This document shows positions 5,854-64,000 of a DNA stretch of 64,000 nucleotides, piece by piece (position 1 is the first letter of the stretch; every line of letters begins with the position of its first letter). The stretch comes from an uncultured beta proteobacterium (lineage in GTDB: Bacteria > Pseudomonadota > Gammaproteobacteria > Burkholderiales > JACQAP01): assembly GCA_963789945.1 (NCBI GenBank), contig CAWBMN010000018.1:105156-169155 (forward strand), given 5' to 3'. The notes below the pieces were generated by a model, which made no database searches, was not told the origin of the DNA, and saw nothing but the letters and a program-made list of their open reading frames with translations. A program made the translations under genes and the position numbers.

Positions 5854-6132
5854 CCCCACCATGGACCCTGTTAATTCGCCGTGAATTCGTTAGTAATGGC
5901 CTACTTTCCCTTGACTAGCCGGGAAAACATCCCGAGAATCGCCCAGTACCGAAGTGCGAAACCGGGCACACAAGCCTGGGTTGGGGGCGTTCCCGCGCCT
6001 CCTGCAGTTTGGCACTTGGAGTGGATCAGGTACGGTAAGTCGCCCGCCTGCCAGCTTTAATCCAAAGAACGACCCAACGGCGACATCGCAGTTTCTTGGG
6101 GAAGAACGAAAAACTTTGAGAGGAAAATCACT

Positions 6133-7878
6133 ATGAACAGCAACACGTCTCGCTTTGCGCGCGCAGCGCTGGCGACGGCATTTTCGGCCGCGCTGCTTGC
6201 CGCCGGAAGTTCCTTCGCCGCCGATGTGGACGCGAAGCGCCTGGTCGATTCGGACAAGGAACCGGGCAACTGGATGAGCTATCACGGCTCCTACAAGTCC
6301 TGGCACTACAGTTCGCTTGATCAAATCAACACGCGCAACGTCAGCAAGTTGACCGAAGCCTGGTCGCACGTCGCCTCGCGCGCCAACCGCGGCCTGCAGG
6401 GCCATCCACTGGCGATCGATGGTGTCCTGTATTACACCAGCCCGTACAACCAGGTCTATGCGCTGGACGGCGCCACCGGCAAGATGATCTGGACCTACAA
6501 ACACAAGCTCAATGAGGATCTGGTCGCACGGCAGACCCACTCGCCGTACAACCGCGGACTCGCGGCCGGTTATGGCAATTTGTACATGGGCACGCTCGAC
6601 GGCAAGCTGGCCGCCATCGACATGAAGACCGGCAAGCTGAACTGGGAGACGAAACTCGTCGATTCGGAGAAGCTGACCGTCGGTTTCACCGGTGCGCCGC
6701 TACTGGTCAAGGACAAGGTGATCATCGGCGCCCAAGGCGGTGAGTGGCCCGATCGCGGACCGATCTTCGGCGTCAACGCCAAGACCGGTGAACAAGTGTG
6801 GCGGTTTTTCACTTCCGGCGGCAACGAGGGCACAGCGTCCGACGCCCTCAAAACCTGGGGTGGAGATTCCTACAAGACCGGCGGCGGCGGCGGATGGATG
6901 GCCGGCAGCTATGATCCGGAAACCGACACGGTATGGTGGGGTACCGCCAACCCGGCGCCGCTGTACGACTGGGCGGGCGACAAGTACATGACTGAAGGTC
7001 CGCGTCCCGGCATCAACCTGTACACCTCTTCGGTTATCCTGCTCAATCCCGATACCGGCGATCTGAAGGCCTTCCACCAGGTGCTGCCGCACGACGCGTG
7101 GGACTTCGACCCGGCGCAAGGCGAGCTGATGATGATCGAGCGCGACGGCAAGAAATACGTCGTGCATCCGAGCAAGAGCGGCTTCGTGTTCGTGTTCGAC
7201 CGCAAGACCGGCAAGCCTGTCAACGTCTACAAGGGCGTGGATGCGATCAACTTCGTCAAGGATATCAAGCCCAATGGCGAACTGGTCGGCCGCTGGGATC
7301 CGCCCGAAGGCAAGCACGTGAACCTGTGCCCGGCCATCGCTGGCGGCTACAGCTGGAATGCGGGCAGCTACAGCCCGAAAACCGGCCTGCTGTACAAAGT
7401 CGGCTTCGAGTGGTGCATGGACCTCGATATCAAGAAGACCGAGCCGATCACCGAACCCGTGGTACAGCTCAACATTGGCGCCGATTTCACCATGCACGGA
7501 CCGGGCAAGGATCCAATGTCGGGCCATATCCGCGCGCGTGATCCGATCACCGGCAAGGTCAAGTACGAGATCAAATACAACGGCGCCACACCGCACGGCG
7601 GCCTGCTGACTACCGGGGGCAACGTGTTGTTCGTGCCGGAGGCCGAGGGCACTCTGGTTGCGTATGACGCCTCCAATGGCAAGAAGCTGTGGAGCCACAA
7701 CCTCGGCCAAGGCAGCAACGGCGGCACCATCACTTACATGGCCAAGGGCAAGCAGTATGTGGCCGTGATGACCGGCTGGGGCAGCTTGGTCGGCGACGGC
7801 TACGGCGAATGGTTTGGTGAACCCTGGAAGAGCATGCCGAAGGACTCTGGCGTGCTAAAGGTGTACGCACTGCCATAA
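6133..7878 (+). CDS. PQQ-dependent dehydrogenase, methanol/ethanol family (XoxF-like organisation)
   Basis: Signal peptide ending SSFAADV, eight-bladed propeller W-motifs, GGEW, and WDFD at 7099..7110. Followed by cytochrome c and MoxJ-like genes. Confidence 0.9.
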   Translation: MNSNTSRFARAALATAFSAALLAAGSSFAADVDAKRLVDSDKEPGNWMSYHGSYKSWHYSSLDQINTRNVSKLTEAWSHVASRANRGLQGHPLAIDGVLYYTSPYNQVYALDGATGKMIWTYKHKLNEDLVARQTHSPYNRGLAAGYGNLYMGTLDGKLAAIDMKTGKLNWETKLVDSEKLTVGFTGAPLLVKDKVIIGAQGGEWPDRGPIFGVNAKTGEQVWRFFTSGGNEGTASDALKTWGGDSYKTGGGGGWMAGSYDPETDTVWWGTANPAPLYDWAGDKYMTEGPRPGINLYTSSVILLNPDTGDLKAFHQVLPHDAWDFDPAQGELMMIERDGKKYVVHPSKSGFVFVFDRKTGKPVNVYKGVDAINFVKDIKPNGELVGRWDPPEGKHVNLCPAIAGGYSWNAGSYSPKTGLLYKVGFEWCMDLDIKKTEPITEPVVQLNIGADFTMHGPGKDPMSGHIRARDPITGKVKYEIKYNGATPHGGLLTTGGNVLFVPEAEGTLVAYDASNGKKLWSHNLGQGSNGGTITYMAKGKQYVAVMTGWGSLVGDGYGEWFGEPWKSMPKDSGVLKVYALP

Positions 7879-16914: not shown

Positions 16915-17502
16915 CTACGACTGTTGCAGCAGCAAGGCGATGTCGTGGGCAAAAACCTCCGGCCCCTGCCCGTAGCTCACGTACACGCGCAGCCGACCCT
17001 GCGGGTCGAAAACGTAAGTACCAGCGGAATGGTCCATGGTGTAGCTGTCCGGGCGCGCGCCGGCGACTTTCTGGTAGATGATCTTGAATTCCTTCGCCAC
17101 CCGCGCGGTCTCCTCCGCAGTGCCGCGCAACCCCAGGAAGCGCGGGTCGAATGCGGTCACATACTGCGACAGGATTTGCGGCGTATCGCGTTCCGGGTCC
17201 ACGGTCACCAGCAGCACCTGCACTCTGTCCCCGTCGGGGCCCAGCTTTTTGACCGCCACCGCCAGTTCCGCGAGCGTCGTGGGACACACGTCCGGGCAAT
17301 GCGTGAAACCGAAGAACATCACCACCACTTTGCCGCGAAAGTCGGCCAGCGTCCGCGGCCTGCCGGTATGGTCCGCAAGTGCGAAGTCCCGCCCGAACTC
17401 GGCTCCGGTTATGTCGGTCGCGCGAAAACCAGGCTTGCCTTGCTGGCAGGCGCCAAGTGCGAGCAGGAGAACGAGCAGGCACAGGCGCAGCACGGCTTTC
17501 AT
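16915..17502 (-). CDS. SCO1/SenC copper chaperone (lipoprotein)
   Basis: Lipobox LALGAC, CPDVCP (CxxxC) motif and the downstream His region of the SCO family. Confidence 0.9.
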   Translation of the reverse strand: MKAVLRLCLLVLLLALGACQQGKPGFRATDITGAEFGRDFALADHTGRPRTLADFRGKVVVMFFGFTHCPDVCPTTLAELAVAVKKLGPDGDRVQVLLVTVDPERDTPQILSQYVTAFDPRFLGLRGTAEETARVAKEFKIIYQKVAGARPDSYTMDHSAGTYVFDPQGRLRVYVSYGQGPEVFAHDIALLLQQS

Positions 17503-33000: not shown

Positions 33001-34761
33001 CTACTGCGCAGGTGTCGCAGGCGATTGGGGCAAAGGGCTGCGCGACTGGGAGTCACTGCGTTGATAGGCGTCGATGCGTTCCTTGGTGTCCAGTATATCC
33101 TGACGCCACGATGCGTCGCTCTCGATCACGGTGGTCTTGAGCAGGATCACCAGCTCGCTTTTCACCACCGAGCGGCGTTTGCTGCCAAACAACGCGCCGA
33201 TCCAGGGTGTCGAGCTCAATCCAGGCAGGCCGTTACTGTCGCGGGCCGACGTTTCCTTCATCAGGCCGCCTATGGCAACGATGTTGCCGTCACTGACGCG
33301 CACGATGGTGTCGCTCTCGCTGATGGAACTGGAGGCAAGCGGCAGGCGGAAATTGCCGGCAGTGCCCAGATCGATGTCCTTGGTTTTTTCGATCACGTTC
33401 GATACCGACGGATGGATGTGCAGGATGATCTGGCTGTTCTGATCAATCTGCGGCGTGACATCGAGGGCAACGCCGGAGAAGAATGGCGCCGTCGTGATGG
33501 TCGGAGACTGGGTGCTGGTGGTGCCGGTGGTAGTGGTATTGGTGGTGATGTTGGTCACGAAGAATTCGTCGGTACCGACCTTCAGCACCGCCTTCTGGTT
33601 GTTCAGCGTTGCGATTCGCGGGCTGGACAGTACCTGCAGATCGCCCTGGGTCTCGAGGAAGGCCATGAGCGCCGCGAAACTGCCGGTCTGGAACGCCAGG
33701 CCGAACAGAGTTCCAGGCGTCCCGGGGCCCACGCCGATGACACCGGGCGCCGCCGGATTGGACGAGAGCAGGGAATTGATGGCAACGGAGCCGTCTGCGT
33801 TGCGCGCCGTGAACGCGCTGATGGCGCCGTTAGGCGACAGCGTCGATCCGGGAGACAGCACCCCGCCCGCGAAGCGGCTGTTGGGCCCCTGCGTGAACGC
33901 CGCCCAGTTCACCCCGCTTTGGTGGGTGTCGGAAAGCTGCACTTCGATGATTTTCGCTTCCAGCATGACCTGGCGCTCGACCACCACCTGCATGGCCTTC
34001 AGGAACTCTTCGACTCCGCGCAGCTCGGCCGGAAAGGCGCGCACCACCATTACACCCGACTGCGGGCTCATCACCACGTTGCGACCGTCTTCGGCCCCGA
34101 TGATCGCCCGCACTGCGGCGCCGATATCCGTCCAGAAGTCGTTGTCCGAAGTGGTCGTCACTTTGCTGCTCTCGATTGCCTGCGCGCCTACACCGCCTGT
34201 CGTCGTCGGTGCGCCAACCACACCCTGCTGAGTCGCGCTCGGCGCATCCGAAATCGCGCCGGAGGTCACGCGCACTTCGGTGCGGCCCTTGCGCTGGCTC
34301 ATCAGGTAGTTGACCTGGAACACCCGCGTTTGCAAGCCGAGCGGCTGGATCAGGACACGGGGGCCCTGCAGCTTGTATTCGTAGCCGTACATCTCGCGCA
34401 GCGTGTCGAGCGCCTCGAACACGGTAACGTCCTTGAGATTGACGGAAATCGCCTCCTTGATGCTCGGGTGCACCACCATGCTGTAACGCGTGCCGGAGAC
34501 GATGGCCATGAAAACCTGGTTGGCTGGCGCGCCGTTTACCACCAGGTCGAAACGGGGCTCGATAGGTCGGCCGTCCACCTTCGGCATTTCAACGGTGAGC
34601 GAAGGCAACAGGGCGCGGTTCACCTCATCCGGTTGCCCCGAAGCAGTCCGCTCGCGCGAGGCTTTCGCCATCTCTTTCTTGGCGTTGCCGTAGGGCACGC
34701 CATAGTGGTTGGCGCACGCGCCCAGCGCGAGGATCAGAAACAGGGTGAGAAGCCTTCTCAT
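33001..34761 (-). CDS. mshL: MSHA-type pilus secretin
   Basis: Lipobox LALGAC, N domains and a C-terminal secretin domain (VSDGNIVAIGGLM...PGLSSTPWIGALFG). Confidence 0.9.
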   Translation of the reverse strand: MRRLLTLFLILALGACANHYGVPYGNAKKEMAKASRERTASGQPDEVNRALLPSLTVEMPKVDGRPIEPRFDLVVNGAPANQVFMAIVSGTRYSMVVHPSIKEAISVNLKDVTVFEALDTLREMYGYEYKLQGPRVLIQPLGLQTRVFQVNYLMSQRKGRTEVRVTSGAISDAPSATQQGVVGAPTTTGGVGAQAIESSKVTTTSDNDFWTDIGAAVRAIIGAEDGRNVVMSPQSGVMVVRAFPAELRGVEEFLKAMQVVVERQVMLEAKIIEVQLSDTHQSGVNWAAFTQGPNSRFAGGVLSPGSTLSPNGAISAFTARNADGSVAINSLLSSNPAAPGVIGVGPGTPGTLFGLAFQTGSFAALMAFLETQGDLQVLSSPRIATLNNQKAVLKVGTDEFFVTNITTNTTTTGTTSTQSPTITTAPFFSGVALDVTPQIDQNSQIILHIHPSVSNVIEKTKDIDLGTAGNFRLPLASSSISESDTIVRVSDGNIVAIGGLMKETSARDSNGLPGLSSTPWIGALFGSKRRSVVKSELVILLKTTVIESDASWRQDILDTKERIDAYQRSDSQSRSPLPQSPATPAQ

Positions 34762-56686: not shown

Positions 56687-56733
56687 AGTGATTGGGTGAT
56701 TGAGTTACTGAATCACTTGATCACCCCATCACT
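56687..56733. terminator. Long imperfect inverted repeat between convergent genes (bidirectional terminator candidate)
   Basis: AGTGATTGGGTGATTGAGT-N9-ACTTGATCACCCCATCACT, 16 of 19 positions paired. Confidence 0.4.
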
Positions 56734-57230
56734 CAATCGCTCCGTCGGTACTCGACCCGCGTCCGCCCGTTGGTGGCGGAGACGTAGATCATCTCCTTGC
56801 CGGTGACTTCCTTGAGCTTCCACGCGGCCGCGAAACCGACCGGCATCAGGCTGGTCAGCGTGGATGATTCGATCCTGGTGTGCAGGTAGCCTTCGCGCAC
56901 CGCCCAGTTGCCGCTCGCAGTAAAGTAGTAGATCAGCCGGCCGTTCTTCACTTCGAAATTGGGCCGGTTCGGCAGCAAATAAAAGTCCGGCGGGACCAGC
57001 AAACGCACCTGTCCCTGCCAATTGACCCGCCCTCCGGGCAGCAGAGTGAACTGGGTCTCGACGATCACGTCGTCCGGCGCCACTTCCCGCGAACCCCATG
57101 TGCCCACCACGACTTTCGCGAACTGGTCGTCCGACGCACCACAGCCGGGCAGCGCCAAGCCTGCACACGTCAGGACGAAAACGACCGCAATGGTCCGCGC
57201 GCTGCGGTCAAGCCGGGCGAAGTCGTACAT
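56733..57230 (-). CDS. Hypothetical lipoprotein
   Basis: MYDFARLDRSARTIAVVFVLTCAGLALPGC lipobox, no family recognised. The ATG shares one nt with the slmA stop. An alternative GTG start is at 57248. Confidence 0.5.
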   Translation of the reverse strand: MYDFARLDRSARTIAVVFVLTCAGLALPGCGASDDQFAKVVVGTWGSREVAPDDVIVETQFTLLPGGRVNWQGQVRLLVPPDFYLLPNRPNFEVKNGRLIYYFTASGNWAVREGYLHTRIESSTLTSLMPVGFAAAWKLKEVTGKEMIYVSATNGRTRVEYRRSD

Positions 57231-57802
57231 CACACGATGCTTGGCCACTGCGCAGGCCAGTACTCGGTTGGATCGCGCCTGAAACCGCTCTTCGCGAACT
57301 GGTGCCAGCGCCCCACCACGAACGCCAGCATCAGGTTCGCCTGCGCGGTGGGATCCACCCCTTCCGGGATTTCCTTTTCCGAAAGCGCAAAGCGCAATGC
57401 CTGCTTGAGCGTGGTTTCGAGCCGGTCGTGCAACTGATTGATGCGCGCCTGCAGCCGTTCGTCCTCGTTCACCAGCGCATCGCCGATCAGCACCCGAGTC
57501 ATACCCGGGTTCTTCTTGGCAAAACCGAGCAGCATCGTCAGCACCGCCTCGAGTTGCTTCATGCCGCTTTTTTCTTCCGCGGTGATCTTGTTGACCAAAC
57601 CAAACAGGGTCTGCTCGATGAACTCGATCAGGCCCTCGAACATCTGCGCCTTGCTGGCGAAATGCCGGTACAGCGCCGCCTCGGAGACGTCCAGTCGCTT
57701 GGCCAGCGCGGCGGTGGTGATTTTCTCCGCCTTGGGATCCTCGAGCATGGCCGCGAGGGTCTGCAGGATCTGGTGCTTGCGTTCTCCCGGCTTGGTCGTC
57801 AT
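57230..57802 (-). CDS. slmA: Nucleoid occlusion factor SlmA (TetR family)
   Basis: Close full-length resemblance to E. coli SlmA (ITTAALAKRLDVSEAALYRHF.SK..MFEGLIEFIE). Confidence 0.85.
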   Translation of the reverse strand: MTTKPGERKHQILQTLAAMLEDPKAEKITTAALAKRLDVSEAALYRHFASKAQMFEGLIEFIEQTLFGLVNKITAEEKSGMKQLEAVLTMLLGFAKKNPGMTRVLIGDALVNEDERLQARINQLHDRLETTLKQALRFALSEKEIPEGVDPTAQANLMLAFVVGRWHQFAKSGFRRDPTEYWPAQWPSIV

Positions 57803-59572: not shown

Positions 59573-59998
59573 TTACTGGATCGCGAGTTTTTTCGAAGTT
59601 ACTGCCGCCTTCTTCGGCAGCCTCAGTTCCAGCACGCCCTCGTTGTACTTTGCCTGCGCGGAGGCTTCGTCCACGTCCTGGGCCAGGCTGAAGGCGCGAT
59701 ACACCTTGCCGTAATAGCGCTCGGAACGCAGGACTTTCTCGCCCTGCCTGTCCTCGCGCTCGCGCTTTACCTCCGCGCTGATCGCGACCTGGTTGCCGTT
59801 GATGGTGACGTTGATGTCTTCCTTCTTCACGCCCGGGATTTCGGCCTGGACGACATAGGCACCATCGTCTTCCTTAACGTCGATACGGAATTGCACCTGC
59901 GACTGGTTCTCGAAAGTCATCGGGCGAACGAAAAAACCCTTGAAGAGATCGTCGAAGGTCTCGTCAAGCGGGTAGCTGTAACGGGCCAAACTTGTCAT
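59573..59998 (-). CDS. Hsp20/alpha-crystallin small heat-shock protein
   Basis: Start at MTSLARYSYPLDE after AAGGAGA. Alpha-crystallin domain (AEIPGVKKEDINV...GVLELRLPK). The track start 60115 is an extension. Confidence 0.92.
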   Translation of the reverse strand: MTSLARYSYPLDETFDDLFKGFFVRPMTFENQSQVQFRIDVKEDDGAYVVQAEIPGVKKEDINVTINGNQVAISAEVKREREDRQGEKVLRSERYYGKVYRAFSLAQDVDEASAQAKYNEGVLELRLPKKAAVTSKKLAIQ

Positions 59999-60049
59999 GT
60001 CAGTCTCCTTGTGCGGATAAATTGGGTCGGGCGTCCGGCGCCCTAGCCC

Positions 60050-60080
60050 GCTATATGTGCGCGGGCGGTGTCTTTTCAAG
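60050..60080 (-). promoter_or_regulatory. Candidate sigma-32 heat-shock promoter of hsp20
   Basis: On the minus strand: GGCCTTGAAAA, a 14-nt spacer, then GCACATATA. Compare the sigma-32 consensus CCCTTGAA-N13-17-CCCCATNT. It ends about 50 nt upstream of the ATG. Confidence 0.45.
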
Positions 60081-60469
60081 GCCCTGCGGGAGACGCGAAA
60101 ACCCTGTCCGGGCACCTGTGAAAATCGCGGGTGGTAGCAATCTGAACCCCGTATCCTGTTGTTTTCATAACGTTTCCAAGGAGCCTCACCGGATTCCTTT
60201 CAGCGCGAGTGCAGAGGTAACTTGAGGTGCCCCCCGGCACCGATTCTTTCTATTCCGCTGGAGCAATCCACCACGTACACGCGCACCTGCCTGTGCCGCA
60301 GGCAGTTGCTCTGCCCGGGACGCGCACGCCTGCATCCATGCGCCTTGGCGCAACGTAACTGTCAACGCGATACGCGCGGCGGCACCGGTCCGCGTTTCCC
60401 AAGCAGGGCCAGCTAACGATTGCAGGGTCCTGCAGCCGGGCAAGTCGATAACTAACCAGGGAGAAACAA

Positions 60470-60730
60470 ATGGTAGACGGCAAAAGGAGGCTCGCCGGCC
60501 TCGCGATTGCGGCGACCGCGGCAGCATTATTCATGACAGGTTGTGCCGCAACCGGAGGCTCCTCCAGTGGCAGCAGTGCCAAAGTCCATTGCGACGGGGG
60601 CAATTCCTGCAAAGGCATGAGCGAGTGCAAGACGGCAAACAGCTCCTGCAAGGGCCAAAACGCCTGCAAGGGACAAGGCTTTGTGATGCTTACACCGGCG
60701 GAATGCAAAACGGCGGGCGGAAGGGCGTAA
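60470..60730 (+). CDS. Exported Cys-rich RiPP precursor, bufferin-like (six-Cys BufA2-type), lipobox-bearing
   Basis: 86 aa: [25 protein letters not shown] / [11 protein letters not shown] / [60 protein letters not shown]. Sits directly upstream of the DUF692 and DUF2063 genes. Confidence 0.75.
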
Positions 60731-60752
60731 ACTTCGCCAGACTCGGCACTGC

Positions 60753-60786
60753 GGGGCATCCATTGGTGTGGGTGCCCCGTTTTTTA
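60753..60786 (+). terminator. Intrinsic terminator/attenuator between the precursor and the MNIO gene
   Basis: CGGGGCA-N14-TGCCCCG stem followed by TTTTTT, located 22 nt after the precursor stop and 18 nt before the next ATG. Confidence 0.55.
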
Positions 60787-60803
60787 CGCGACCTTCATCA
60801 TCC

Positions 60804-61643
60804 ATGACCGCACAAACTGCGCTCGGCTTCGGATTGGGCCTGCGCTCCGATCACTACGAGGACATCCTCGCGTCCCGGCCCAACGTGGACTGGTTCGAGG
60901 CGCTGACCGAAAACTACCTGGTGCCGGGCGGCAAGCCGCTGCATTACCTGGATCGCGTCCGCGCCGAATTTCCCATGGTCCTGCACGGGGTGTCGTTGTC
61001 GATCGGAAGCCACGATCCCCTGGACCGCGAATATCTCAAGGCGCTCAAGCAACTGGCGCAACGCGTCGAACCGGCTTGGGTATCGGATCATCTGTGCTGG
61101 ACCGGCGTTGCCGGCCGGAACCTGCACGATCTGTTCCCCCTGCCCTACACCGAGGAAGCGACCGGGCACGTCGCTGCAAAGGTGCGCGAGGTCCAGGATT
61201 TCCTGGGACGGCAGATCCTACTCGAGAACGTGTCCACATACGTGACCTTTCGCCAGTCGGAGATGAGCGAGTGGGAGTTTCTTGCGGAGATCTGCGCGCG
61301 CGCCGATTGCCTGATCCTGCTCGACATTAACAACATCTACGTGAGCGCCTACAACCACGGTTTCGATGCCCAGGATTTTCTGAACGGCGTGCCCGCTGCG
61401 CGGGTGCGGCAGTTCCATCTTGCCGGCCACAGCAATTGCGGCACCCATATCATCGACACCCACGATGCGCCGATCATCGACCCGGTATGGGAGCTTTACC
61501 AGGATGCGCTGCGCCGCTTCGGGCAGGTCGCCACCATGATCGAGCGCGACGACCAGATTCCGCCGCTGGCGGAGCTGGTCACGGAACTCGACCAGGCACG
61601 CCGGATCGCGGCGCAGACGCTGGCGGCGAGGGTCGCGGCATGA
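60804..61643 (+). CDS. DUF692/MNIO family multinuclear non-haem iron oxidase (BufB/MbnB-like)
   Basis: [57 protein letters not shown]: the DUF692 TIM-barrel signature. Start re-picked at MTAQTALGF. Confidence 0.9.
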
Positions 61644-62422
61644 GCGCGCTCACCGGCACCCAGGCACGCTTCCAGGCCTACGTGCTCGCGGGCGATGGAG
61701 CGATTGTCTCTGACATCGCCGGTGCCGACGACGCGTTCCGCCGCACCCGGCTCGACATCTATTACAACGCCTACCGGCTGCGGCTGGCGGAAGCGCTTGC
61801 CACCGACTACGAAATCCTCAAGACCTACACCGGCGACGAGATCTTTGACGCCATCGTCCGCGAATACATCGATGCGCACCCCTCCGTATTCCGCAACGTG
61901 CGCTGGTTCGGCGGGCACCTTGCCGGTTTCCTGCGTGACGAGCCGCGCTATGCGGGGCAGCCGATACTGGCCGACCTGGCGCGGTTCGAGTGGACGTTGG
62001 GACTGGCTTTCGATGCCGCAGACACCGCGGCGCTCCGGTTCGAGGACGTTGCCGCGGTGCCGGCCGAAGCCTGGACCGACCTGCGTCTCACCGTGCATCC
62101 CGCGGTTCATGTTATCGAACTGCAGACCAATGCCGTCGCCATGTGGAACGAGCTCAAGAACGCAGATCGCGGGATCGCGCCGGAAAGCCTGCCCGAGCCG
62201 TCGCGGTGGGCCATATGGCGCAAGCAGCTCTCGCCTTATTTCCGCTCGCTCGAAGCCGACGAAGCCTGGGCGCTGGACGCCATGCGCAATCACCTCGGTT
62301 TCGGCGAGATTTGCGCCGGGCTGTGCCAGTGGCTGCCCGAAGATCAAGCCGCGCCGCGTGCGGCGACGCTGTTGCGAGGCTGGGTGGACGAAGGCTGGAT
62401 CGCATCTCTGGAAACCACCTAG
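61640..62422 (+). CDS. DUF2063 family partner protein (BufC-like)
   Basis: The start overlaps the MNIO stop (ATGA). [19 protein letters not shown] and LARFEW regions are typical of the DUF2063 proteins that pair with DUF692. Confidence 0.85.
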
Positions 62423-62530: not shown

Positions 62531-64000
62531 ATGTCCAGACTATTCGTCTCTGTAATCTTGATTCTGGCGGCCCTGGTATGCAGGCCGGCGTTCGGCATGA
62601 CCTCGGCCATGGTCGCGTCATGCCCCGCCGGAATGGACCAGAAGGTCGAAACGCTCAGCGGAATGTTCACTGTGCACGTGATCTGCGACCACGTGCTGTT
62701 CGAGATTCCGAAACCCATGCTGAACCGGGACATGCTGGTGAATACCGAGTTCGCCGCACTCTCGACCGGGAGCGACTTCGTCGCACCGGGCTCGGTGGTG
62801 GACAACCGGGTGGTGCGTTGGGTCCGGCGCGGCAACAAGATGCACCTCGAGGACGTGCGTTACGAGATCTGGGCGCCGAACATGCCCAACCTGCAGCGCG
62901 GCGTTGAATCAGCGTCACTGCGGACGGTGATCCGGGCATTCGACATCATCACCGAGGGCCCGGATGGTGCCCCGGTCATCGACATCACGGGCCTTTTTGC
63001 GACCGAGGTACCGGAAGGTTTTGCTCTGGAATTCATGCAGCACTTCAGCATGGATCAAGTGGACCCGAAACGTTCTTTCATCGAAACCGTCAAGGCGTTT
63101 CCGCACAACATTGAAATCCGCTTCTACCAGACCTGGGTTCCGGATCGCGACCGGTTGCGCAAGTCGGCGGAGCAAGGCGAGGAGCGCATTGCGCCGGGAC
63201 TGGGTTTCATCTTTCACACCAGCATTCTGCTTCTGCCCGAGGTGCCGATGCGGGGACGCTACTGGGACGAGCGGGTCGGTTATTTCGCGACCTGGTTCGA
63301 CGACTACGGCACTGCCGAGCACGGCAGGGTGCAGCGCGCTTTCATCCAGCGTTACCGTCTCGACAAGAAGAATCCGCGGGCCGAAGTGTCCGAACCGGTC
63401 AAGCCCATCACGTTCTTCATCAGCCGCGAAGTGCCAGACAAATGGCGTCCATTCATCAAGCGCGGGATCGAGGACTGGCAACAGGTGTTCGAAAAGGCGG
63501 GTTTCCGCGATGCCATCATCGCCCGCGATGCGCCGTCGGAACAACAGGACCCGAATTGGGATCCGGAGGACGTGCGCTACAACGTGATCCGCTGGACGCC
63601 CAGCGGCCGCCAGAATGCAATGGGACCTGCGGTGGTCGACCCGCGCAGCGGCGAGGTGATCTCTTCCCATGCCATTTTCTGGCACGACGTGCTGCGTTTG
63701 GCCGAGAACTGGTACTTCACCCAGGTCTCGCCGCTGAATACGAGTGCACAGAAGCTGCCTCTGCCGGATGACGTCATTGGGGACATGCTGCGCTACATCG
63801 TCGCGCACGAAATCGGCCACGCGCTGGGGCTGCGCCACAATTTCAAGGGACATTCGGCGTATTCGGTGGCGCAATTGCGCAGCCGCGAGTGGACCGAAAA
63901 ATGGGGCACTTCCGCTTCCATCATGGACTATGCGCGATTGAATTATGTCGCCCAGCCCGGCGACGGAGCCTATCTGCTACCCAAGTTCGGCCCCTATGAC
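62531..64000 (+). CDS. Secreted zinc-dependent metalloprotease (reprolysin-like HExxHxxGxxH), C-terminus cut by window edge
   Basis: Absent from the track because it runs off the right edge. Hand translation gives MSRLFVSVILILAALVCRPAFG (signal peptide) ... VAHEIGHALGLRHNF zinc motif ... SIMDY. The - strand ORF 62915..63874 is antisense noise. Confidence 0.8.
   Translation, partial: MSRLFVSVILILAALVCRPAFGMTSAMVASCPAGMDQKVETLSGMFTVHVICDHVLFEIPKPMLNRDMLVNTEFAALSTGSDFVAPGSVVDNRVVRWVRRGNKMHLEDVRYEIWAPNMPNLQRGVESASLRTVIRAFDIITEGPDGAPVIDITGLFATEVPEGFALEFMQHFSMDQVDPKRSFIETVKAFPHNIEIRFYQTWVPDRDRLRKSAEQGEERIAPGLGFIFHTSILLLPEVPMRGRYWDERVGYFATWFDDYGTAEHGRVQRAFIQRYRLDKKNPRAEVSEPVKPITFFISREVPDKWRPFIKRGIEDWQQVFEKAGFRDAIIARDAPSEQQDPNWDPEDVRYNVIRWTPSGRQNAMGPAVVDPRSGEVISSHAIFWHDVLRLAENWYFTQVSPLNTSAQKLPLPDDVIGDMLRYIVAHEIGHALGLRHNFKGHSAYSVAQLRSREWTEKWGTSASIMDYARLNYVAQPGDGAYLLPKFGPYD

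Follow-up and report, generated by a model that had tools for sequence, protein, structure and literature searches.

Bufferins constitute a very large and recently recognised family of copper-defence peptides. The location of a bufferin decides which copper pool is buffered (free periplasm, membrane-tethered or vesicle-exported) and whether the peptide can be shed. Buf2 of Caulobacter vibrioides (CCNA_03001; BUF_6/12Cys) was described by Leprevost et al. 2024 (PMC11626156) and belongs to the same NCBIfam family, NF050166, as the peptide reported here. Its four central Cys residues were each found to carry a mass shift of −4 Da, and Cys I and VI were unmodified and probably disulfide-bonded (PMC11626156). 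In Caulobacter, expression of the buf operons is under the control of SigF, an ECF factor (PMC11626156). The enzymes of these pathways were addressed by Gadgil et al. 2026 (PMC13097082), who reported that MNIOs acting on Cys-Lys substrates carry an Asp, and not a Phe, after the catalytic Asp. Predicted lipoprotein signal peptides were found by Antoine et al. 2025 (PMC12452194) in about 16% of Buf2 bufferins. RiPP-lipoprotein hybrids, termed DAG-RiPPs, were defined by Chen et al. 2026 (PMC13056109), who showed triacylation for DybA and for NedA, an EGKCG-type peptide, and who also identified, by genome mining, SPII signals in subsets of the bufferins and of the oxazolins. Of the two peptides, DybA belongs to the macrocyclic ChrH type and comes from Bacteroidota, and NedA is an EGKCG-repeat (Lys-Cys) oxazolin/captophorin and a putative copper binder; in lipo-DybA and lipo-NedA, modification in the cytoplasm is followed by triacylation of the lipobox Cys (PMC13056109).

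The bufA2BC locus and its putative regulatory elements

The window, i.e., the whole stretch of 64,000 nucleotides that was analysed, contains the following features at and around the bufferin precursor gene.

60334 to 60357, + strand: promoter-like motif (ATCCA-N15-CGTA) located 113-136 nt ahead of the bufA2 ATG
60459 to 60464, + strand: ribosome-binding site GGGAGA, read from the sequence, with a GGAG core kept in the syntenic loci
60470 to 60730, + strand: bufA2, encoding an 86-aa BufA2-family bufferin precursor (ORF listing and NF050166; coordinates include the stop codon)
60584 to 60727, + strand: core peptide, residues 39-86, with Cys I-VI at positions 41, 47, 53, 60, 66 and 79
60751 to 60786, + strand: GC-rich hairpin of 13 bp followed by U6, between the bufA2 stop and the bufB start (terminator scan)
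60804 to 61643, + strand: bufB, MNIO (DUF692) bufferin maturase of 279 aa (NF050167 and PF05114)
61542 to 61553, + strand: E-R-D-D motif, BufB residues 247-250, read from the sequence
61640 to 62422, + strand: bufC, DUF2063 partner of 260 aa, whose start overlaps the bufB stop (ATGA)
62531 to 64000, + strand, running off the window end: gene that begins about 109 nt past bufC and encodes a secreted met-zincin with DUF5118/DUF5117/DUF4953 and a HEIGHALGLRH motif

The open reading frame at 60470-60730 was found exactly as listed in the earlier note, with agreement in the translations of leader and tether. It starts with ATG, comprises 86 codons and is preceded by the GGGAGA ribosome-binding site at a distance of 5 nt. 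Met22 was dismissed as an alternative translation start, given that the ribosome-binding site lies ahead of Met1 and that the n- and h-regions show conservation at the amino-acid level. The precursor scored 87.2 bits against NCBIfam NF050166.1 (cut-off 60; residues 11-85 covered), the family entitled 'BufA2 family periplasmic bufferin-type metallophore', and the Pfam search of the precursor returned zero matches, including none to PF10048 (DUF2282). These results support the assignment, already made in the earlier note, of the predicted peptide to the six-Cys BufA2 class of bufferin precursors and not to the DUF2282 class. Cysteines occupy positions 25, 41, 47, 53, 60, 66 and 79, and the six core Cys are separated by 5, 5, 6, 5 and 12 residues; the first four gaps are those given before, and the last had been put at 13 by a one-residue slip. 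The count of four core Cys in an (S/A)-C-K-G context was also too high, as only C47, C60 and C66 occur in it, C53 and C79 being found in E-C-K-T and C41 in H-C-D-G. Lys directly follows five of the six core Cys. The database search yielded 478 BufA2 homologues, and the six core Cys and the C-K-G motifs were invariant in alignment A1, which holds 36 sequences of both lipobox and signal peptidase I (SPI) types. Three close lipobox-type homologues, P0031, P0038 and P0052, are without one central core Cys (…CKTASGPKGQNAC… or …ANARKG…), which indicates from their sequences that the number of modifiable Cys varies inside the lipobox clade. No second bufferin core motif was found elsewhere in the 64-kb window.

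The structure of BufA2 was modelled with AlphaFold2 from the 36-sequence alignment, and the model was poor (mean pLDDT 57.7, pTM 0.31). The order of its two strands and short helices matches the published description of bufferins. A Foldseek search of the model against the PDB returned only meaningless matches (E >7), and a profile search of PDB sequences with BufA2 gave no significant match. Because the model is poor, its predicted fold and disulfide geometry stand without independent support.

BufB was recognised by NCBIfam NF050167 MNIO_BufB with 392 bits (cut-off 310) and by Pfam PF05114 with 379 bits. Its E-R-D-D motif may correspond to the Asp described for MNIOs of the Cys-Lys type; the equivalence to FonB D249/F250 is taken from the text of that paper. 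The second Asp of the motif may be the reported contact to the Lys after the substrate Cys. About three-quarters of the BufA2-linked BufBs examined carry E-R-D-D and the remainder mostly E-R-D-A. BufC scored 67.6 bits against Pfam PF09836 DUF2063 (cut-off 27.2) and 29.8 against the HvfC equivalog (cut-off 142), and was thus classed as a DUF2063 partner and not as HvfC. No signal peptide was seen by inspection of the N-termini of BufB and BufC, so modification would precede export, as in the DAG-RiPP model (PMC13056109).

The order bufA2-bufB-bufC is kept in most of 80 related loci, and no DoxX gene follows bufC in the window. The met-zincin gene was rejected as a cluster member, since it is missing at this position in five syntenic loci and in most other related loci. 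Locus L065 is the only related locus with a homologue nearby (61% identical, 2.4 kb from bufC, opposite strand). The closest genome locus, L001, comes from a Burkholderiales MAG and encodes a BufA2 with 91% identity. A block comprising ThiF, a 171-aa lipoprotein, a SlmA-like TetR regulator, a HAD hydrolase, ArgB, Hsp20 and bufA2BC is common to L004 and L005, and its bufA2-proximal part is present in L001 and L015, which lie on shorter or cut contigs. This shared gene block indicates that the buf operon is stably inherited in the lineage, at a housekeeping location. Related sequence was found in soil, wetland and freshwater-sediment metagenomes, including two soil runs labelled 'METAGENOMIC RNA-Seq', in which the depth over hsp20 and bufA2BC was flat and DNA-like.

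Other proteins with lipobox-like N-termini are encoded in the window. The 171-aa protein of the block (56733-57248, − strand) has a lipobox-like LALPG-C and no Pfam match, and is 77% identical in the block of L004, L005 and L015. A SCO1/SenC copper chaperone (16915-17502, − strand; PF02630, 162 bits) carries a classical lipobox, MKAVLRLCLLVLLLALGA-C (LALGA-C), and would be a second lipid-anchored copper-handling protein in the window. A secretin (33001-34761, − strand; PF00263, Secretin_N_2 and STN domains) begins with a lipobox-like N-terminus, MRRLLTLFLILALGA-C.

The hairpin between bufA2 and bufB folded with −29.6 kcal/mol (z = −3.6), and none of 200 shuffled sequences was as stable. A stable hairpin directly after bufA2 was found in all 15 other loci folded, of lipobox and soluble types (16 with the window: L001-L005, L008, L009, L015, L022, L032, L038, L044, L059, L065 and L070). 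A U-tract follows the hairpin in some of the folded loci and is missing in others. The element looks like a family-wide intrinsic terminator/attenuator or mRNA stabiliser, and would probably serve to keep the precursor transcript in excess of the enzyme transcript, or to make the former more stable. Upstream of bufA2, the ATCCA-N15-CGTA motif was aligned and invariant in 7/7 syntenic loci and occurred once in the 64 kb window. Among 79 related loci, 11 (mostly from Burkholderiales) had the motif ahead of bufA2, compared with one control stretch, and it is possibly an alternative-sigma promoter of the ECF type. The region upstream of bufA2 showed no sigma-70-like promoter, and the generic GGAAC-N-CGT ECF pattern was not enriched upstream of bufA2 genes. 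An Rfam search over the whole window gave nothing at gathering thresholds, with only a chance-level snoRNA match in 59900-60900.

Signal peptide, lipobox and tether

Three features precede the core in the precursor.

60470 to 60541, + strand: predicted signal peptidase II (SPII) signal peptide, residues 1-24 (pattern test; h-region and lipobox conserved in homologues)
60542 to 60544, + strand: TGT codon of Cys25, the predicted site of diacylglyceryl and N-acyl attachment and mature residue 1
60545 to 60583, + strand: tether, residues 26-38, of low complexity and variable

The leader consists of the n-region MVDGKRR (with K5, R6 and R7), an uncharged h-region of 13 residues and the lipobox F-M-T-G at −4 to −1, followed by C25. 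It was evaluated with a self-coded rule of the PROSITE PS51257 type, in which K/R is needed in the first 7 residues, no D/E/R/K is allowed at −10 to −5, and the pattern [LIVMFWSTAG]2-[LIVMFYSTAGCQ]-[AGS]-C has to place the Cys at position 15-35. The leader satisfies this rule with F, M, T and G at −4 to −1 and Cys25. The stricter form, [LVI][ASTVI][GAS]C, fails at −3, where the window peptide has Met; this form holds in 45 of 62 lipobox-bearing homologues, which have I, V or L at −3. Residue statistics were taken from these 62 sequences, which have a full core and pass the lipobox rule. Position −3 was found to be I, M, V or L in 61 of the 62 and position −2 to be T, A or S; −1 was always G, and +2 was A, S or T in 60, with Glu in the other two.

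The database search revealed G-C at the aligned position in 61/61 nearest homologues (about 58-94% identity), a set that includes one sequence with K at −2, one with a mis-called (over-extended) start and one truncated at its N-terminus. The pair is kept as well in the syntenic orthologues L001-L005 and L015. Since all 61 nearest homologues keep G-C, the conservation of the putative lipobox Cys25 exceeds chance. In P0002 (a 23-member cluster, 93% identical to the window peptide), Lys at −2 (FMKG-C) breaks the lipobox rule; either a real polymorphism or a sequencing error could account for it, the contig being 658 nt long. Below about 55-60% identity, most relatives show AxA sites and no lipobox Cys, and distant BufA2 proteins contain six Cys only, with Ala-x-Ala a few residues before Cys I (e.g., ...APAHA, cut before DEAKVHC). 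In the homologues, a spacer of 12-19 residues, 64% of them A/G/S/T, separates the lipobox Cys from Cys I of the core. The tether showed the highest column entropy among six segments compared, and its residues 27-35 had pLDDT values below 50 in the AlphaFold2 model. The proposals of a lipoprotein-type leader ending in F-M-T-G-C and of a Gly/Ser-rich tether were thus borne out by the homologues, and Cys25, whose conservation had been named as a check, proved to be conserved. SPII processing and lipid anchoring are the best prediction for the BufA2 precursor, because a conserved lipobox is followed by a flexible tether.

The main competing explanation for the same residues is a cut by SPI near G24-C25-A26, before A27, which would give a soluble periplasmic bufferin like Caulobacter Buf2, with Cys25 either removed together with the leader or retained as an extra thiol. 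Next to the lipobox there are indeed residues of a size that SPI accepts, Met at −3 is not the canonical Leu, Val or Ile, and every experimentally characterised bufferin is a soluble periplasmic peptide (PMC11626156). Nevertheless, an SPI cut leaves unexplained the invariant G-C in 61/61 nearest homologues, the hydrophobic residue at −3 with T/A/S at −2, and the replacement of the AxA site of SPI-type relatives by a Gly/Ser tether, and was judged to be quite improbable. Lipid anchoring is further favoured by the comparable lipoboxes of other lipoproteins in the window, e.g., SCO1/SenC.

It was also considered that Cys25 might serve as a seventh functional Cys of the metallophore, modified by BufB or binding metal, and not as a lipidation site. 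The function of the family depends on Cys chemistry, and twelve-Cys forms exist (PMC12452194). Cys25, however, stands where the hydrophobic signal ends and is embedded in G-C-A, unlike the modified Cys, which have a C-K context; the position of Cys25 follows the h-region and not the core, and SPI-type relatives function with six Cys and without Cys25. This possibility was regarded as very remote, well below that of an SPI cut.

With lipidation at Cys25 retained as the preferred reading, the destination of the lipoprotein has to be weighed. Under the sorting rule of E. coli, Ala instead of Asp at +2 would mean Lol-dependent transport to the outer membrane; that rule is a weak guide for a betaproteobacterium. 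The lipoprotein might instead be kept in the inner membrane, or be sent to the cell surface or to outer-membrane vesicles, and would then not look into the periplasm from the outer membrane: the rules of Lol avoidance differ outside Enterobacteria, lipo-DybA was detected in E. coli outer-membrane vesicles (Chen et al., PMC13056109), and two homologues have Glu at +2. Against these locations, Ala here and A/S/T in 60 of the 62 homologues give no retention signal by the E. coli rule, and no surface-export motif is known or was detected. Such a location was considered unlikely, if somewhat less so than SPI processing.

Frequency and distribution of the lipobox

The frequency of lipobox forms was determined in two sets. 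A scan of one genome per species gave 80 loci with 86 BufA2 ORFs, and 14 of the latter (16%) had a lipobox. A profile search of 1.84 billion representatives at 50% identity recovered 2,434 family members at E ≤ 0.001; among the best 150 of these, 32 met the lipobox rule and three more had lipobox-like ends on atypical cores (32-35/150). Both shares, 14/86 and 32-35 of the best 150 representatives, agree with the published value of about 16%. Several double-domain (12-Cys or two-repeat) representatives start with a lipobox (P0122, P0123, P0125-P0127, P0129, P0132, P0136, P0149 and P0162), and predicted lipid anchoring is therefore not confined to single-domain forms.

In a neighbour-joining tree of the linked BufBs, calculated without bootstrap and so suggestive only, the lipobox loci fell in at least four separate places.

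Clade 1: the window clade, Burkholderiales/Betaproteobacteria MAGs
Clade 2: L065 and L070, a Burkholderiales pair
Clade 3: L009, L044 and L059, Methylophilaceae, including the cultured Pseudomethylobacillus aquaticus H-5 (L009)
Clade 4: L032, a Gammaproteobacteria MAG

Locus L032 contains tandem bufA2 genes (5908-6156 and 6334-6588) with near-identical cores, both upstream of one bufBC pair. One copy is of the SPI type (…PMAASAG, cut before DKIHC) and the other has a lipobox (MLGA-C ASSGHDEG…), and each has its own ribosome-binding site and terminator. In the soluble forms of BufA2, the end of the h-region is conserved as A-L-F-x-x-G-[S/A/T], and lipobox and soluble types differ little in the distance that separates Met1 from Cys I. 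Because of this conserved end and similar distance, a single Ser/Ala-to-Cys change after the Gly could create a lipobox, the old c-region then becoming the tether. Taken together, BufA2 bufferins may have switched lipid anchoring on and off readily in the course of evolution, a proposal put forward tentatively and held at slightly less than an even chance. If it is true, cells would tune the site of copper buffering (free periplasm as opposed to membrane, surface or outer-membrane vesicles), and soluble and lipidated bufferins would do different jobs.

Proposed maturation and comparison with known systems

The sequences are best interpreted, with good though not full confidence, as those of a BufA2 bufferin of the lipoprotein type: a peptide that is made on ribosomes, buffers copper and is predicted to be lipid-anchored and not free in the periplasm. 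Transcription would start from the upstream promoter and give the bufA2 transcript, most copies of which would stop at the hairpin or be stabilised by it, with some reaching bufB and bufC. In the cytoplasm, by analogy with Caulobacter Buf2, BufB and BufC would convert C47, C53, C60 and C66, each of which stands before a Lys, into 5-thiooxazoles. Cys25, which is set in G-C-A where the hydrophobic signal region ends, should escape BufB and be spared for Lgt. The BufA2 precursor would then be exported by Sec. As suggested by the conserved lipobox, Lgt would attach diacylglycerol to Cys25, signal peptidase II would cut between G24 and C25, and Lnt would N-acylate the new N-terminus. A disulfide between C41 and C79 may form, as proposed for Caulobacter Buf2. 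The mature peptide of 62 residues would stay attached to the membrane through a flexible tether, about 13-15 residues long, and would chelate excess periplasmic copper.

The locus provides a clean and conserved example of a lipoprotein-type Buf2 from soil/sediment Burkholderiales. The suggestion of the earlier note that a lipid-anchored bufferin would be a new variation on the family did not hold, as both the subset of about 16% of Buf2 (PMC12452194) and bufferins with SPII signals (PMC13056109) had already been published; a lipobox-bearing relative, P0017, had also been named as BufA2-family by the NCBI annotation pipeline. The literature searched contained no report of demonstrated lipidation of a Buf2 bufferin itself. 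With the concept in print, the value of the present analysis lies in confirmation and evolutionary detail and not in discovery. The frequency of the subset was confirmed independently, the lipobox was found to be conserved in a vertically inherited Burkholderiales operon, and signs were obtained, a tandem pair among them, that the family has changed more than once between the soluble and the lipidated form. Further additions are the hairpin that follows bufA2 in each of the 16 folded loci, and a promoter-like motif specific to the lineage.

Like Caulobacter Buf2, the window BufA2 has six core Cys with equal spacing, C-K-G motifs and an N-terminal Sec-type signal in place of a RiPP leader, and its genes form a three-gene bufA2-bufB-bufC operon that, as in the Caulobacter buf2ABC cluster, is without a DoxX gene. 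The two differ in processing, as Caulobacter Buf2 has an SPI site and is soluble in the periplasm, whereas the window peptide has a lipobox and a 13-residue Gly/Ser-rich tether. The likeness to the DAG-RiPPs lipo-DybA and lipo-NedA (PMC13056109) lies in an MNIO-modified, Cys-rich precursor with a predicted SPII signal, and the defining arrangement of that class, an SPII-signal precursor beside modifying enzymes without a secretion signal, was found here for a signal that is predicted. Unlike DybA and NedA, the window peptide is a folded six-Cys bufferin of the Cys-Lys type, for which lipidation is predicted only. The SCO1/SenC protein of the same window is comparable in that a copper-binding function is held at the membrane by an N-terminal lipobox, but SCO1 is an unrelated chaperone of the thioredoxin fold with ordinary Cys ligands and is no heterocyclised RiPP. 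The lipoprotein-signal Buf2 of Antoine et al. (PMC12452194), proposed to be membrane-anchored after Sec export, are exactly the same class as the window BufA2, which is a further member of this already described subset. The subset was given one sentence in that paper, in which the tether, the taxonomic spread and the repeated switching of type were not described.
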